In this document: in pieces, positions 3,214 to 21,371 of the stretch
How the letters are laid out: the number at the start of each line of letters is the position of its first letter
Numbering within the stretch: the stretch's first letter is position 1
DNA from: an uncultured Nitrospiraceae bacterium
GTDB lineage: Bacteria > Nitrospirota > Thermodesulfovibrionia > Thermodesulfovibrionales > Dissulfurispiraceae
DNA length: 21,371 nucleotides
Direction of reading: 5' to 3'
Assembly (NCBI GenBank): GCA_947085205.1
Contig: CAMTVO010000044.1
Location: 1 to 21,371 of the forward strand
The notes under the pieces: model-generated
Seen by the model: only the letters and a program-made list of their open reading frames with translations
Database searches by the model: none
Told to the model about the DNA's origin: nothing
Position numbers and translations under genes: made by a program

Positions 3214-6054
3214 ATGCCGATTGATTACAAGGATACCCTTAATTTACCACAAACAGATTTTCCGATGAAGGCCAATCTCAACCAGAGAGAGCCTGACATC
3301 CTGAAATTCTGGGAAGAAAAGTCTGTCTATCAAAAACTTCAGGATAAGAATAAAGGCAATAAGAGGTATATCCTTCACGATGGTCCGCCTTATGCCAACG
3401 GCAATATTCATATTGGCCATGCGCTGAATAAAATCCTCAAGGATATAATCGTCAAATACAAATCAATGCAGGGGCATTATTCTCCATATGTGCCGGGATG
3501 GGACTGTCACGGGCTTCCAATAGAACTTCAGGTTGATAAGAATTTAGGTGACAAAAAAGAGCAGGTGGATGTGTTAAAGAAACGTCAGCTTTGCCGCGAA
3601 TATGCTGATAAGTTCGTCAATATCCAGAGGGAAGAATTCAAGAGGCTCGGTGTATTCGGCGATTGGGACAGGCCGTATCTCACAATGTCCTACGATTATG
3701 AGGCATCCATTGTGAGGGAGTTTTTCAGGTTTGTAAAGAATGGTTCTGTTTATAAAGGCAAAAAGCCTGTTCACTGGTGTCCTTCATGCGTAACCGCTCT
3801 TGCAGAGGCAGAGGTCGAGTATGCGGAGAAGGAGTCGCCATCGATATTTGTAAGGTTTCAGATAATCAATGAAGACATTTTAAAATGCCTGCCGCAGTTG
3901 TCAGGCAAGAAGGCATATATCATAATCTGGACGACCACTCCGTGGACGCTTCCTGCAAATCTTGCCCTTGCAGTGAATCCAGAGCTTACCTATGTTGCGG
4001 TTGAAGACGTTGGAGAGGTACATATCATTGCTGAGGACAATCTCGAAAACCTCAAAGAGAAGAATGTCGTCAAAGGCAATGTTGTTCTAAAAATTTCCGG
4101 AGATAAGCTCGAAGGCATAAGGGCGAGACATCCGTTTATAGACAGGGAATCAAAACTTATTCTTGGTGATTTTGTCACTGTAGGCGAAGGCTCAGGCATT
4201 GTTCATATTGCGCCAGGCCACGGCGAGGATGACTATGATGCCGGACTTAAATACGGACTTGATATTTATGCGCCTGTTGACGACAAGGGCAAATTTACGA
4301 AGCATGTCCCTGAGTTCGAAGGGCAGTTTGTTTTCAAGGCGAATGAAGGGATTATCGAGCTTCTGAAAGAAAAGAATGCCCTTTTAGGCGTTGATAAAAT
4401 CAGGCATTCTTATCCTCACTGCTGGAGATGCAAAAAGCCTGTCATATTCAGGGCAACTGCCCAATGGTTTATTTCAATGGAAAAGAGGAATCTGAGGGCT
4501 AAGTGTCTGAAGGAGATAGAGAGGGTTGAATGGATTCCCTCATGGGGCAGGGAGAGGATACACGGAATGGTCTTAAACAGGCCTGACTGGTGCATTTCGA
4601 GGCAGCGGTCATGGGGAGTTCCTATAACACTTATTACCTGCGAAGACTGCGGTGCATTCATCGAGGATGAGGATTTATTCAATAAGGTTACAGGGCTGAC
4701 AGAGCAGAAGGGCGCTGATATTTGGTTTAAGATGGATGTCAAAGACCTTCTTAAAGACGGGTATAAATGCAATTGCGGAAGCACATCATTTAAAAAAGAG
4801 ACGGACATCCTCGATGTCTGGTTTGACTCAGGCGTAAGCCATGCAGCGGTTTTAGAGAGAGATAAGAGGCTTTTATGGCCTGCTGAAATGTATCTTGAGG
4901 GAAGCGACCAGCACAGGGGTTGGTTCCAAAGCTCTCTCTTTGCATCTGTCGGGACAAGGGGAAAGGCGCCTTACAACATAGTCCTTACACATGGATTTAC
5001 AGTGGACGGACAGGGAAAGAAGATGTCAAAGTCCCTCGGAAATGTTATTGCGCCGCAGGAAATCATCAAGGCCAATGGTGCTGATATTTTGAGATTATGG
5101 GTCTCTGCTGAGGATTACCGGGATGATGTAAGGCTTTCAAAGGAAATCATAAATAGACTCACAGAGGCATACAGGAAAATCAGAAACACAGGAAGATTCC
5201 TTCTTGGCAATATCTACGACTATGATGGAAAGGACTACAGCAATAATCTGCTTGAGATAGACAGATGGGCGATGTCGAGGCTTCAGGGGCTGATAAAGAA
5301 GGTTGCCGAGGCTTATGAAAACTTTAATTTCCATGAGGTTTTTCATTCCATCTATAACTTTTGCATTGTTGATATGAGTTCCTTTTATCTCGATATTTTG
5401 AAAGACCGTCTTTATACCTTCAAAACGGATTCTCCAGAAAGGCGTGCAGCGCAATGGGTTATGTACCGGATACTTGCTGACATGACAAGGCTGATGGCTC
5501 CTGTTCTTTCATTCACCTCAGAGGAAATATGGAATTATGTGCTAAAACAGCAGTCAGCAGTCAGCAGTCAGCAGTTACCCCCCTTAACAAGGGGGGGATG
5601 GGGAGGTGAGGAAGATATGGAAAGTGTCTTCCTTGCAGGTTTCCCCACTGTTAGGGAGGAATTTGTCAACGAGGCCATTGAAAAGAGATGGGAAAAACTC
5701 ATAGATATAAGGGATGAGGCAAATAAGGCGCTTGAGATAAAAAGAAAGGATAAATTCATCGGAAATGCCCTTGAGGCAAAGCTGGTGTTTTATCTGCCTG
5801 ATGAGGAATTGAATCTTTTGCAGGCCTATAAAGACTTTCTGCCTGCGCTTTTCATTGTCTCCGAAGTCAAGATTCATCCATCAAGCCATAAGGCAGGGGA
5901 TGTTTATGAGAGCACAGAGATTAAAGATATGTTCATAAAAGTGGAAAGGGCATCAGGCAGCAAGTGCGAAAGATGCTGGAACTGGAGCGTATCTGTTGGA
6001 AAATTTGAAGATCATCCGCAGGTCTGTGAAAGATGCTACAATGCAATCAAATAA
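3214..6054 (+). CDS. ileS: Isoleucine-tRNA ligase (type 1)
   Basis: LHDGPPYANGNIHIGH, GWDCHGLPIE, WTTTPWT, KMSKS, C-terminal CERCW...CERC zinc finger; followed by lspA. Confidence 0.99.
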   Translation: MPIDYKDTLNLPQTDFPMKANLNQREPDILKFWEEKSVYQKLQDKNKGNKRYILHDGPPYANGNIHIGHALNKILKDIIVKYKSMQGHYSPYVPGWDCHGLPIELQVDKNLGDKKEQVDVLKKRQLCREYADKFVNIQREEFKRLGVFGDWDRPYLTMSYDYEASIVREFFRFVKNGSVYKGKKPVHWCPSCVTALAEAEVEYAEKESPSIFVRFQIINEDILKCLPQLSGKKAYIIIWTTTPWTLPANLALAVNPELTYVAVEDVGEVHIIAEDNLENLKEKNVVKGNVVLKISGDKLEGIRARHPFIDRESKLILGDFVTVGEGSGIVHIAPGHGEDDYDAGLKYGLDIYAPVDDKGKFTKHVPEFEGQFVFKANEGIIELLKEKNALLGVDKIRHSYPHCWRCKKPVIFRATAQWFISMEKRNLRAKCLKEIERVEWIPSWGRERIHGMVLNRPDWCISRQRSWGVPITLITCEDCGAFIEDEDLFNKVTGLTEQKGADIWFKMDVKDLLKDGYKCNCGSTSFKKETDILDVWFDSGVSHAAVLERDKRLLWPAEMYLEGSDQHRGWFQSSLFASVGTRGKAPYNIVLTHGFTVDGQGKKMSKSLGNVIAPQEIIKANGADILRLWVSAEDYRDDVRLSKEIINRLTEAYRKIRNTGRFLLGNIYDYDGKDYSNNLLEIDRWAMSRLQGLIKKVAEAYENFNFHEVFHSIYNFCIVDMSSFYLDILKDRLYTFKTDSPERRAAQWVMYRILADMTRLMAPVLSFTSEEIWNYVLKQQSAVSSQQLPPLTRGGWGGEEDMESVFLAGFPTVREEFVNEAIEKRWEKLIDIRDEANKALEIKRKDKFIGNALEAKLVFYLPDEELNLLQAYKDFLPALFIVSEVKIHPSSHKAGDVYESTEIKDMFIKVERASGSKCERCWNWSVSVGKFEDHPQVCERCYNAIK
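5548..5575 (+). repeat. Heptamer tandem repeat (CAGCAGT)x4 inside ileS
   Basis: Four perfect units; encodes QQSAVSSQQ. Confidence 0.9.
5578..5611 (+). repeat. Palindromic element inside ileS, related to the res elements
   Basis: CCCCCCTT-AAC-AAGGGGGG followed by GATGGGGAGGTGAGG; ends in GGTGAGG like 195-242 and 903-950; encodes PPLTRGGWGGE. Confidence 0.8.
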
Positions 6055-19092: not shown

Positions 19093-19878
19093 ATGAAAAT
19101 AGAAAATCTTAGAAATATCGGCAAGCGCCTCTTTTCTGAAATCGGAAACACGCGCCTTATGCCTTTTACATCCGAATCCCTCGGAAAGGGGGCCGGAGGC
19201 GATAAGACATTTCCTATAGATAAAAAGGCTGAGGATATTATAATCGGTTCATTAGAGGCCCTCAAAGAGCCATTGAGCATAGTTTCAGAAGAGGCTGGAT
19301 TAAAGGAAATCAAAGGCGGTGGCAAAAAAGTATTACTAGACCCCATCGACGGCAGCAAGAATGCCATTACAGGAATACCTTTTTACTGCTCTTCAATCGC
19401 TGTTGCGGACGGTGATAACATCGGCAGCATTACGCTCGCATACGTAATAAATCTCCTTACAGGGGATGAATTCTGGGCTGAAAAAGGCAGGGGCGCATTC
19501 TTTAATGGCGAAGGGATTCATACACAGAAAGACGATATTTTTTATCTCGTTGCGTATGAGACTCCGAGTCCAAAGAATGATATCCCAAAGATGATGAGAT
19601 TGCTTGCAGAAGCGAGGAGGACAAGGTGTCTCGGCGCTACGGCCCTTGATTTGGCGTATCTTGCATACGGCTCTATAAGCGTATTTATAACTCCTTCGCC
19701 TTCGCGTAGTTTTGATTTTGCAGGGGGCTATCTCCTGACGAAAGAGGCGGGAGGCGTATTTACCGATATTAAAGGGAATTCCATAGATGATACCGAAATA
19801 ACACTTAAAAAAAGCGCATCGCTTTTAGCTTCCGGAAATAAAGAATTACATGAAAAGGCATTGAAGCTGTTGGGCTGA
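19093..19878 (+). CDS. Inositol monophosphatase / FBPase class IV family phosphatase
   Basis: GAGGDKTFPIDKKAEDII, SEE, LDPIDGS, RCLGATALDLAYLAYG, DFAGG...EAGG. Confidence 0.88.
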   Translation: MKIENLRNIGKRLFSEIGNTRLMPFTSESLGKGAGGDKTFPIDKKAEDIIIGSLEALKEPLSIVSEEAGLKEIKGGGKKVLLDPIDGSKNAITGIPFYCSSIAVADGDNIGSITLAYVINLLTGDEFWAEKGRGAFFNGEGIHTQKDDIFYLVAYETPSPKNDIPKMMRLLAEARRTRCLGATALDLAYLAYGSISVFITPSPSRSFDFAGGYLLTKEAGGVFTDIKGNSIDDTEITLKKSASLLASGNKELHEKALKLLG

Positions 19879-19914
19879 ATTTCAAGTTATGTTTCTGCTC
19901 AAAATTTCCGTAAA

Positions 19915-20145
19915 GTGCCAAAAGCCGATGTCATAGAAAAGGTATCAATAATAGTTGCCACCGAGAGCTTACACATCCCAGACAAAAAGATAATTGCAGA
20001 TGCCCTTGTTCTTTACAGCAGGAAAAATATTGACTATATAGACGCATACAATGCTGTATTCATGAAGAATTATGGTCTCGGAGAGATTTATTCATACGAT
20101 GAAGATTTTGATTCAATAGATGGTATAAAAAGAGAAGAACCGTAA
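19915..20145 (+). pseudogene. PIN-domain (VapC-like) toxin, N-terminally truncated
   Basis: C-terminal PIN motifs IDYIDAY and IYSYDEDFD are present. The N-terminal DTN-type strand, an RBS and an antitoxin are missing; the frame begins at the stop of the upstream gene. Confidence 0.75.
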
Positions 20146-20184
20146 AAATGATAATTATAGCTGCGCTGTTATAGCATCAGGAAT

Positions 20185-20442
20185 ATGTCTGAGATGACAG
20201 AAAGATTTTACGCGCACAGCCTGAACGGCAGGCCGGTTGAAGATTGGCATCGGCTTGAGGAGCATCTCTTCGGCACTGCCAAACTTGCGGCGAAATTTGC
20301 GGCTGAATTCGGCTGCGGGGAGTGGGGGTATCTGGCGGGGCTGTGGCATGATCTGGGGAAGTATTCGTCTTTTAGAGCGATCCCGATGGAAAATATAGGG
20401 TTCGGTACGGTGAAACCGGTTGACAAGGTTCACGATATATGA
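20185..20442 (+). pseudogene. 5' fragment of a Cas3-type HD nuclease gene, copy 1
   Basis: FYAHS...WHRLEEHLFGTAKLAAKFA...LAGLWHDLGKYS matches the Cas3 HD N-terminus (AH..., L..HL, HDxGK). Similarity ends near 20370; later His/Asp ligands and the helicase are absent. Confidence 0.8.
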
Positions 20443-20468
20443 CATAGTAGCTACAAATGTAGCTACAT
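20420..20468 (+). promoter_or_regulatory. TA operon promoter with tandem palindromic operator
   Basis: TTGACA (20420-20425)-17-CATAGT with extended TG; GTAGCTAC palindromes at 20447-20454 and 20459-20466, the second within the perfect 12-mer ATGTAGCTACAT; GGAGG RBS at 20469. Confidence 0.75.
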
Positions 20469-20479
20469 GGAGGCATGCA

Positions 20480-20743
20480 ATGAAATTCGCTAATGTCAGG
20501 GAACTCAAGAACAAGACATCCGAGATATTGAGAAATGCCGAGAAAGAGGCTGTGATTATCACCTCAAACGGCAAGCCGCGAGCAATTGTCACTGCGATTT
20601 CGGAGGAGGACTTTGAAGACTATCTCCTCGAAAAGAGCGCCGATCTTCAGGACATGCTCGCGGAAGCACAAGCAGAGTACCGGAGCAAGGGCGGCGTGAC
20701 ATTGGAAGATTACCTGTCTAAAAGGGAAAAAAAGCGTGGATAA
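20480..20743 (+). CDS. Phd/YefM family antitoxin
   Basis: MKFANVRELKNKTSEILR...VIITSNGKPRAIV, acidic C-terminal half; start moved to ATG 20480 after the GGAGG. Confidence 0.88.
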   Translation: MKFANVRELKNKTSEILRNAEKEAVIITSNGKPRAIVTAISEEDFEDYLLEKSADLQDMLAEAQAEYRSKGGVTLEDYLSKREKKRG

Positions 20744-21017
20744 GTTTCAGATCGTCCTTTCACCCCCTGCGATTAAAGACCTTGACGGCTTCAGCGACGG
20801 TGTTTGCAGAAAGGTTGTTCGAGCATTACAGGCACTCAGGGACAACCCTTTTCCCAGAGGAAAAGCAATCAAAAAAATCAAAGGGACGAATTCAGATTAT
20901 TACAGGCTCAGGGTGGACAAGTACCGGGTGTTCTATATGATTGAAGGCAATCGTGCCGTAGTTTTGCGAATTCTCAACAAAAAAGATGCTGAGCGGTTTA
21001 TCAGAAATCTGAACTGA
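20736..21017 (+). CDS. RelE/ParE superfamily toxin
   Basis: IVLSPPAIKDL, L.DNPFP, KKIKG, YRLRVDKYRVFY; basic, 93 aa, overlapping the antitoxin stop. Confidence 0.9.
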   Translation: MDKFQIVLSPPAIKDLDGFSDGVCRKVVRALQALRDNPFPRGKAIKKIKGTNSDYYRLRVDKYRVFYMIEGNRAVVLRILNKKDAERFIRNLN

Positions 21018-21030
21018 AAGAAGGCGCTTT

Positions 21031-21051
21031 CTGAATGCTGAAAGCTGAGGG
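21031..21051 (+). repeat. Degenerate heptamer repeat CTGAATG CTGAAAG CTGAGGG
   Basis: Three units; the reverse complement is TCAGCNN-like, resembling the TCAGCAG register of the ileS repeat. Confidence 0.45.
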
Positions 21052-21059
21052 ATTAGAGG

Positions 21060-21273
21060 AAAGAATTTTTTGCACATATTACCGTCACTATTCACTGTCA
21101 CTGTAACACGGCTGGAGTGAAGGGGGAAAGAGGAGCATCTGGAGGGGACTGTCCCGGATTTACGGATGGAGCGAATCGTAGTCGTAGAATCGGGACTGTC
21201 CCCGCCTAAGAGGATAGTTGCAAAGTTTGCCCATGAATTCGGCTCCGGGGAATGGGAACGGCTTGCGGGGTAA
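21060..21273 (+). pseudogene. 5' fragment of a Cas3-type HD nuclease gene, copy 2 (degraded, not in ORF track)
   Basis: KEFFAH at 21060-21077, then a frame change and stop, then EEHLEGTV (21130-21153), a 19-codon insert, and RIVAKFAHEFGSGEWERLAG-stop, homologous to 20185-20340. Confidence 0.8.
21144..21203. repeat. 60-bp palindromic element with GGGACTGTCCC ends inside Cas3-HD fragment 2
   Basis: Arms GGGGACTGTCCCGGATTTACG and CGTAGAATCGGGACTGTCCCC are 17/21 complementary without gaps; absent from the homologous position of copy 1. Confidence 0.8.
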
Positions 21274-21291
21274 ACATTGCAAAACAGGATA

Positions 21292-21317
21292 TGGTAAAAT
21301 GTAGTCATATTGGAGGT
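21292..21317 (+). promoter_or_regulatory. Extended -10 promoter and RBS of the last gene
   Basis: TG-G-TAAAAT at 21292-21300; GGAGGT at 21312-21317. Confidence 0.5.
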
Positions 21318-21322
21318 GGTTT

Positions 21323-21371
21323 ATGCATAAGATAACAGATGTCAGTCCTCTGGAAGGATTTAGGATCTGGA
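21323..21371 (+). CDS. Start of a probable DUF2442-type (TA-associated) protein, truncated by the window end
   Basis: MHKITDVSPLEGFRIW resembles the DUF2442 N-terminal pattern (I..V.PL..Y.L.L.F.DG); strong RBS. Only 16 codons are visible. Confidence 0.5.
   Translation, partial: MHKITDVSPLEGFRIW

Follow-up and report, generated by a model that had tools for sequence, protein, structure and literature searches.

Short 5' Stubs of Type I-C cas3 as Probable Homology Handles in Integrase-Free Arrays of Defence Modules

Two fragments of a CRISPR-associated gene lie among toxin-antitoxin (TA) genes at the end of a contig from an uncultured Nitrospiraceae bacterium. They are dead 5' stubs of a type I-C cas3, and we think that they probably act as homology handles for an integrase-free, RecA-type insertion, stacking and swapping of defence modules. 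In related genomes, stubs of ~60-200 nt link TA, BRO-N, ORF6N and four-helix-bundle modules to each other and to replacement cas or restriction-modification (R-M) operons. Most of these stubs end in a conserved G/T-rich stretch at the HD motif, and their upstream and downstream partners are freely combined.

Results

The Window and Its Two cas3 Stubs

The window, that is, the whole 21,371-nucleotide stretch analysed, is the entire contig C44 of genome G000 (1.89 Mb, 89.7% complete). The order and coordinates of its features hold as first described. All on the forward strand, a suhB-like inositol monophosphatase gene (19093..19878; PF00459, E = 2.6e-34), a core gene at the edge of the variable site, is followed by the 3' remnant of a PIN (VapC-like) toxin gene, stub 1, a promoter-like site, Phd, RelE/ParE, stub 2, another promoter-like site and, finally, the beginning of a DUF2442 gene. 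The PIN remnant (19894..20145; PF01850, E = 1.4e-4) aligns with residues 53-135 of the PIN protein of G055 (tblastn, 65% identity), corresponding to about the 3' two-thirds of the gene, and is without both the 5' third and an antitoxin gene.

Stub 1 (20185..20366) comprises codons 1-61 of a type I-C cas3 and is intact through the HD motif, ending just past HDLGKY, at nt 203 of the cas3 profile described below. Its last part (20313..20366, codons EWGYLAGLWHDLGKY) is a G/T-rich end zone with four TGG and four G-runs (20317-20358). The frame has 85 codons, continues in foreign DNA and stops at 20442. The match to TIGR01596 (cas3_HD; E = 2e-10) covers positions 1-47 of 178 and, at 41 bits, lies just below the cut-off of 43.45. 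Stub 1 is 82% identical to the full-length I-C Cas3 of G045, itself followed by Cas5c and Cas8c, and its tblastn matches on plasmids carry a Cas3 annotation. The Cas3-HD identity first proposed is thus borne out, as opposed to another HD family. Since the similarity ends at codon 61, leaving no complete HD nuclease and helicase, stub 1 does not qualify as a functional Cas3. No long inverted repeat was found in it.

Stub 2 (21057-21270, within a spacer-plus-stub segment at 21018..21270) is decayed. It is 75% identical to stub 1 over 51 nt, has AGG at the position of its relatives' start codon, and its two halves, the second ending at GERLAG, are in different frames. It also carries two hairpin inserts, a short hairpin repeat (~21083-21125) and a REP-like palindrome (21144..21203, unstranded; hairpin of -34.3 kcal/mol) at the E-H-L-x-G-T codons. 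With no start codon, a frameshift and two inserts, stub 2 is not a peptide gene. Judging from the profile match and the similarity to the Cas3 of a cas5c-cas8c operon, both fragments are 5' ends of type I-C cas3. The original prediction, which had both ending at or just before the HD motif, was right in making them cas3 5' ends; fragment 1, however, contains the whole HDLGK and fragment 2 has no open reading frame.

Copies of the REP-like element were also found on contigs C7 and C1 of G000, and the element occupies the identical stub site in loci L183, L186, L215, L216 and L267. At its loci, which include L259, the palindrome also ends a BRO stub, and often new DNA is joined on where it lies. 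Such names as REP-like, four-helix-bundle flank repeat, G-quadruplex, Chi and attC serve here as presumptive designations. In the rest of the window, palindromic-looking inserts lie in frame within coding genes (2-1567 and 3214-6054): a type III-like restriction protein (PF19778) has two proline/glycine-rich stretches as inserts, and IleRS has a similar insert plus a short stretch of tandem-repeat origin near its end. We take these palindromic-looking inserts to resemble REP-type insertions.

A new promoter had been predicted after each fragment, and promoter-like sites do follow both, at 20420-20448 and 21271-21300. The second belongs to a third module (21270..21371) that is cut by the contig end and has 97% DNA identity to G246, beginning exactly at 21270, where stub 2 ends. 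The first 16 codons of its last ORF (ATG at 21323) have relatives with 82-97% DNA identity that encode a DUF2442 and DUF4160 pair (Pfam).

A contig from public run X1, which may be the source sample, covers 19815-21051 with one difference, and none of the public-run contigs spans the whole region in one piece. One X1 contig joins 19900 to 21031 (30 nt on the short side), and X3 contigs cover 21031-21125 with other flanks; the 19900/21031 joint may represent a second, unbinned copy of the region and was left out of the analysis. With the queries used, no orthologous acyl-CoA synthetase, BRO, WYL, ORF6N, cas1, cas5 or cas6 gene was found on other G000 contigs, and neither a full-length copy of the stub's cas3 nor any cas1 was found in this 89.7% complete genome. 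Another short contig of G000, C18 (1-3357), has a cas8-like gene with a stand-alone cas3'' and cas3' in a type I-A/I-B-like order; it bears no relation to the stubs and was rejected as a continuation of the array.

A Mosaic Phd-RelE Module

Between the stubs lie a Phd/YefM antitoxin gene (20480..20743; PF02604, E = 9.3e-11; TIGR01552) and a RelE/ParE-family toxin gene (20736..21017; PF05016, E = 2.6e-9). The segment before them (20420..20466) has a sigma-70-like promoter (TTGACA-17-CATAGT, 20420-20448) and two 8-nt palindromes (20447-20454 and 20459-20466), and is conserved among the aligned Phd loci. The palindromes are predicted to form the Phd operator. An antitoxin gene overlapped by its toxin gene, a promoter-like site of its own and a palindromic putative operator make up the layout of type II systems, and from this layout and the domains we predict a type II TA module.

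Alignments to relatives place the left flank of the module at 20369..20419. Similarity to G298 and L206 begins at 20369, and a stretch of ~18 nt directly ahead of the Phd promoter (20398-20415) aligns with the 3' end of cas6 of G015, G184 and G251, a cas6 remnant. The promoter and Phd-RelE are 88-100% identical to those of G220, G298 and G301; the segment 21015-21080, with the spacer and the start of stub 2, is 86% identical to G144 and G260, compared with 32-50% to G220, G298 and G301. These values indicate that the module is a mosaic, stub 2 deriving from another donor lineage than the TA genes.

Phd-RelE has other neighbours elsewhere: it follows cas6, precedes either full cas1 or cas1 stubs, or stands by itself among housekeeping genes. 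Distant Phd-RelE relatives in L252, L253, L255 and L260 lie amid tandem genes, some followed by 5' stubs of those genes, which are presumably adenylate-cyclase-like. This pattern is possibly the same process at another anchor.

Distribution and Full-Length Parent

The stub matched 22 of 68 genomes of the family and, with a 16-row profile, 128 of 390 genomes of the class, so that the stub pattern is widespread in this class. Short frames outnumber long ones: among 150 matches listed of 183, 82 have at most 165 aa, 64 at least 300 aa and four lie between, split stubs and contig-end matches being counted as they stand. The full-length parent is a Cas3 of 730-750 aa heading a cas5c-cas8c operon. 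The closest named relatives of the stub are in Nitrospirota MAGs. A small number of records from further phyla contain stubs as well, among them one Deltaproteobacteria MAG and one Methanosarcinales MAG.

Where the Stubs End

A nucleotide profile built from 41 full-length cas3 starts gave 114 stub calls, 89 after removal of duplicates; four were left out (two divergent or contig-end genes, one duplicate piece and one divergent cas3), and stub 2 of the window is not among the remaining 85 because it lies at the contig end. Ends fell at nt 60-99 (n = 10), 100-139 (n = 8), 140-174 (n = 2), 175-209 (n = 61) and 210-300 (n = 4). Smaller clusters occupy nt 89-91 and the site of REP insertion (nt 96-115). 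The 61 stubs ending in the 35-nt zone represent 27 classes of downstream sequence, although the counts are not independent, many junctions being shared by descent. The many truncated copies with clustered ends that the original prediction called for do therefore exist.

When 600 random truncations were made, 568 were detected and only 87 (15%) ended at nt 175-209, which rules out an alignment artefact as the source of the clustering; reversed sequences gave no profile match. The search is biased to stubs that reach the HD motif, which affects the lower side of the distribution and not its sharp upper edge. One stub of 120 codons is known (L070). Of 64 long matches, 49 are full length, nine run off the locus and six are point-broken or unclassified, and no long truncation was seen concealed among those counted as full.

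Within the first 330 nt, column conservation is highest in the zone (0.86 at nt 181-195). Synonymous identity is mildly raised there (0.47, against a median of 0.38 and a 99th percentile of 0.56). In 11 full-length genes, G occupies 62% of fourfold sites in the zone (60/97), compared with 23% in the rest (765/3339). In the window the zone is 52% G, a value that one of 37,708 segments of 50 nt on the G000 forward strand matches.

Such a composition would fit a dedicated system that cuts in or near the stub, guided by a G-quadruplex or Chi-like signal, by a REP/RAYT-type transposase or by a remote recombinase. The four G-runs, the G-rich fourfold sites and the REP-like element at a fixed stub site in several loci speak for it, as do RAYT-like genes near two stub loci and nine tyrosine-recombinase matches elsewhere in G000. 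Nevertheless, the ends occupy almost all positions of nt 175-209, so that there is no single cut site, and G-run motifs of this kind number 126 in G000. None of the k-mers of the zone is over-represented in G000 (the best 8-mer ranks 597 of 65,057), and a Chi-like motif was rejected on this basis; a structured RNA was likewise rejected, Rfam having given no hit at E <= 1. None of the stubs examined has a recombinase gene next to it: a profile made from five G000 recombinases found no tyrosine recombinase in the stub loci, the window's array being cut by the contig end, and Pfam found none among the neighbouring ORFs (109 of 143 representative ORFs scanned), with a single DDE transposase. We regard a dedicated cutting system as decidedly unlikely. 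The best candidates for what draws first-time junctions to the zone are its conservation across donors and its richness in TGG and G.

Arrays, Cargo and Shuffling

In arrays of two to five, the stubs stand between modules that include TA pairs, genes for BRO-N, ORF6N and four-helix bundles, R-M genes, and replacement cas operons. Stub matches number five in L215 and three each in L263 and L267, and 13 loci have at least two (some of these counts include REP-split halves). L215 reads BRO, stub, ORF6N, stub, four-helix bundle, BRO, a 221-aa gene, stub with REP, Phd-RelE, stub, DNA methylase; L213 reads Phd-RelE, stub, MNT-HEPN, stub, four-helix bundle, a short HD-motif piece and a different cas3. 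In both loci a four-helix-bundle gene lies between the left and right pieces of one stub. Further combinations occur in L263, L264 and L267-L273, with stub, cargo and full cas3 in succession in L264, L269, L270 and L271. The 221-aa protein lies directly 5' of stubs at L215:3709-4371, L194:10231-10893, L274 and L275; as it has no Pfam or NCBIfam match and falls just in unnamed Atlas clusters (of at most 1313 members), it was rejected as a recombinase.

The site beside suhB differs between genomes. Thirteen of 30 suhB loci continue straight into an acyl-CoA synthetase, eight have defence-type inserts and nine have other neighbours. In G055 the order is suhB, AbrB-PIN, stub, Phd-RelE, stub, BRO-N, WYL and a cas3 similar to the type I-E cas3 of G039. 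G055 shares site and order with the window, but its stub alleles and junction differ and its Phd is 78% identical, so that the two arrays were not simply inherited. Both the multi-unit arrays and the variation in content at one site that were foreseen for this system were therefore found.

The cargo was less well anticipated. TA modules, proposed as what the arrays accumulate, follow only nine of the 85 stubs, whereas after 42 comes a cas gene that belongs to another operon; BRO, ORF6N or four-helix-bundle genes follow 12, R-M genes four and other genes two, and 16 followers are unlabelled. As loci were collected with stub or Phd/RelE queries, RelE neighbours are inflated in these counts. The commonest follower (15/85) is a type I-C-like operon beginning with cas5 (L030, L031, L183, L202, L274, L275, L285, L286, L290, L294 and L296), and in L030, L031 and L183 cas3 stands after cas7 in this operon.

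The 85 stubs show 32 distinct pairs of upstream and downstream genes. The MNT-HEPN junction repeats behind RelE, PIN and PIN_3 (L213, L264 and L292), and junction 1 of the window repeats behind another PIN (L206) and in G301. In G283 a cas3 direct repeat, identical at 54 of 56 nt, flanks Phd-RelE; its upstream joint extends into the -35 box, a single suggestive case of possible microhomology. In L215, three arms agree at 90-95%, compared with a between-locus median of 67%. L215 and G283 are the only loci of high internal similarity; in five other cases, pairs from one locus are 33-71% identical.

It could be argued that the stubs are passive scars of independent deletions or operon replacements, their length being kept for a function in cis such as ribosome loading or translational coupling. 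Thirty-seven of 49 long stubs form one open frame and several stop beside, at or overlapping the start codon of the next gene, which fits translational coupling; the frequent follower is a replacement cas gene and not a cassette; and other genes leave stubs at these loci as well, with scattered ends (cas1, n = 5; BRO, n = ~7; ORF6N, n = 5), so that part of the pattern is general debris. Coupling would, however, be unnecessary in the window, where a new promoter-like site comes after both stubs, and stub 2 has no start codon. Junctions shared behind different upstream genes, the G283 repeat and the near-identical arms of L215 would also go unexplained. We therefore consider this explanation unlikely.

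The open frames, together with the start codon and 85-codon frame of stub 1, could also suggest that the stubs encode short peptides with the HD motif that have a function in their own right, such as modulating Cascade or Cas3. This second suggestion of the original prediction now appears very improbable: the other 12 of the 49 long stubs lack a single open frame, stub 2 has a frameshift and no start codon, lengths and C-terminal tails vary freely, and just the first motif of the HD domain is present.

Discussion

A Homologous Anchor Without an Integrase

Integrons and integrase-less attC clusters carry rows of small defence or TA modules with a recurring separator and with content that differs between genomes. 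The cas3 arrays resemble them in these respects, and the original prediction had compared them with an integron-style array. They differ, however, in having no IntI, no attC-like palindrome and no fixed crossover base, and in a spacer made of protein-coding DNA. IntI was absent beside the array at the stub loci examined, and an attC with fixed crossover was judged absent from the spread of ends, the repeat search in stub 1 and Rfam. On these two counts the arrays do not qualify as integrons. The idea of a recurring recombination or landing site in cas3 survives in the clustered ends and the arrays, but not as a single cut site, and cas1, BRO and ORF6N leave stubs too.

A closer parallel comes from effector-immunity arrays of Vibrio cholerae's type VI secretion system (T6SS) and from orphan Rhs/CDI arrays. 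Excerpts of PMC5361080 describe their integrase-free growth at a conserved coding anchor, which is ascribed to homology-facilitated illegitimate recombination (HFIR) followed by spread through homologous recombination, and compare them with integrons. The cas3 arrays likewise combine a conserved homologous anchor, variable non-homologous cargo and no integrase, the features of HFIR-type sequential displacement, a further mark of which would be 3-10 bp of microhomology where the illegitimate joining took place. In the arrays of those excerpts, a single anchor stands at the front and 3' pieces and immunity genes are pushed back (PMC5361080), whereas the cas3 arrays repeat the anchor itself between one unit and the next and carry cargo that has no relation to it. 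The best reading would be an integrase-free array on a homologous anchor, akin to the T6SS/Rhs displacement arrays.

The proposed mechanism would have three steps. In the first, an illegitimate joining, often of the microhomology type, would create the junction between a stub end and the promoter or ribosome site of a new gene. In the second, a piece consisting of promoter, cargo and cas3 start, produced for example by trimming and then recircularisation, would enter a resident cas3 start or stub through a single crossover, after which a stub would remain upstream and a cas3 start downstream; stub-to-stub crossovers could excise or exchange units again. In the third, TA addiction would retain TA units after replacement or loss of the cas operon that follows them. 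The events, circles and intermediates are inferred from sequence, and the mechanism as a whole is likely.

We counted in favour of stubs as homology handles the arrays, the clustering of ends, the shuffling of partners, the succession of stub, cargo and full cas3, the G283 repeat, the L215 arms and the mosaic module of the window. The low similarity of the five other within-locus pairs and the merely mild rise in synonymous identity were counted against it. A homologous anchor does not by itself explain the sharp fall in ends after nt 209.

Laboratory precedents exist for parts of this scheme. Excerpts of PMC3240628 report, for Escherichia coli, a partial duplication in 56 of 60 clones (109-950 bp in the 14 sequenced), attributed to degradation, recircularisation and a single crossover; a short duplication of the target gene flanks the insert, which is the geometry of stub, cargo and cas3. 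The event there is rare (~4e-9 to 6e-9) and has scattered ends, and the same excerpts report neither a natural array nor a preferred end zone. RecA prefers TGG repeats, on which its filaments are most stable (PMC3763553). We would not take these two precedents as showing the same process at the cas3 stubs. One fixed site sees the replacement of entire cas operons in the E. coli cas-E1/E2 exchange, for which excerpts of PMC3903273 describe no retained cas3 stub and no array of accessory genes. We found no description of cas3-stub arrays in the literature searched, a search with most subscription journals and supplements outside it.

Implications

Two things have been poorly explained so far: the route by which TA pairs and further small defence genes get into CRISPR and R-M operons when no mobility gene is at hand, and the exchange of entire cas operons at fixed sites. 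In the present case the junctions can be read base by base in dozens of genomes, with an anchor of 200 nt and an end zone of 35 nt, which makes the mechanism directly testable. For annotation, short "Cas3 HD" ORFs in these genomes should be taken as connectors or scars and not as split cas3 genes.

A bolder, tentative possibility is that the first 200 nt of type I-C cas3 act as a universal connector across the class, an equivalent of attC made of coding DNA whose G/TGG-rich end would be recombinogenic. Defence cassettes made up of promoter, cargo and cas3 start would leave as circles between stubs and re-enter any cas3 start by RecA alone. If this is true, these bacteria would have an integrase-free analogue of the integron, through which entire CRISPR effector operons and R-M operons would be swapped as well.
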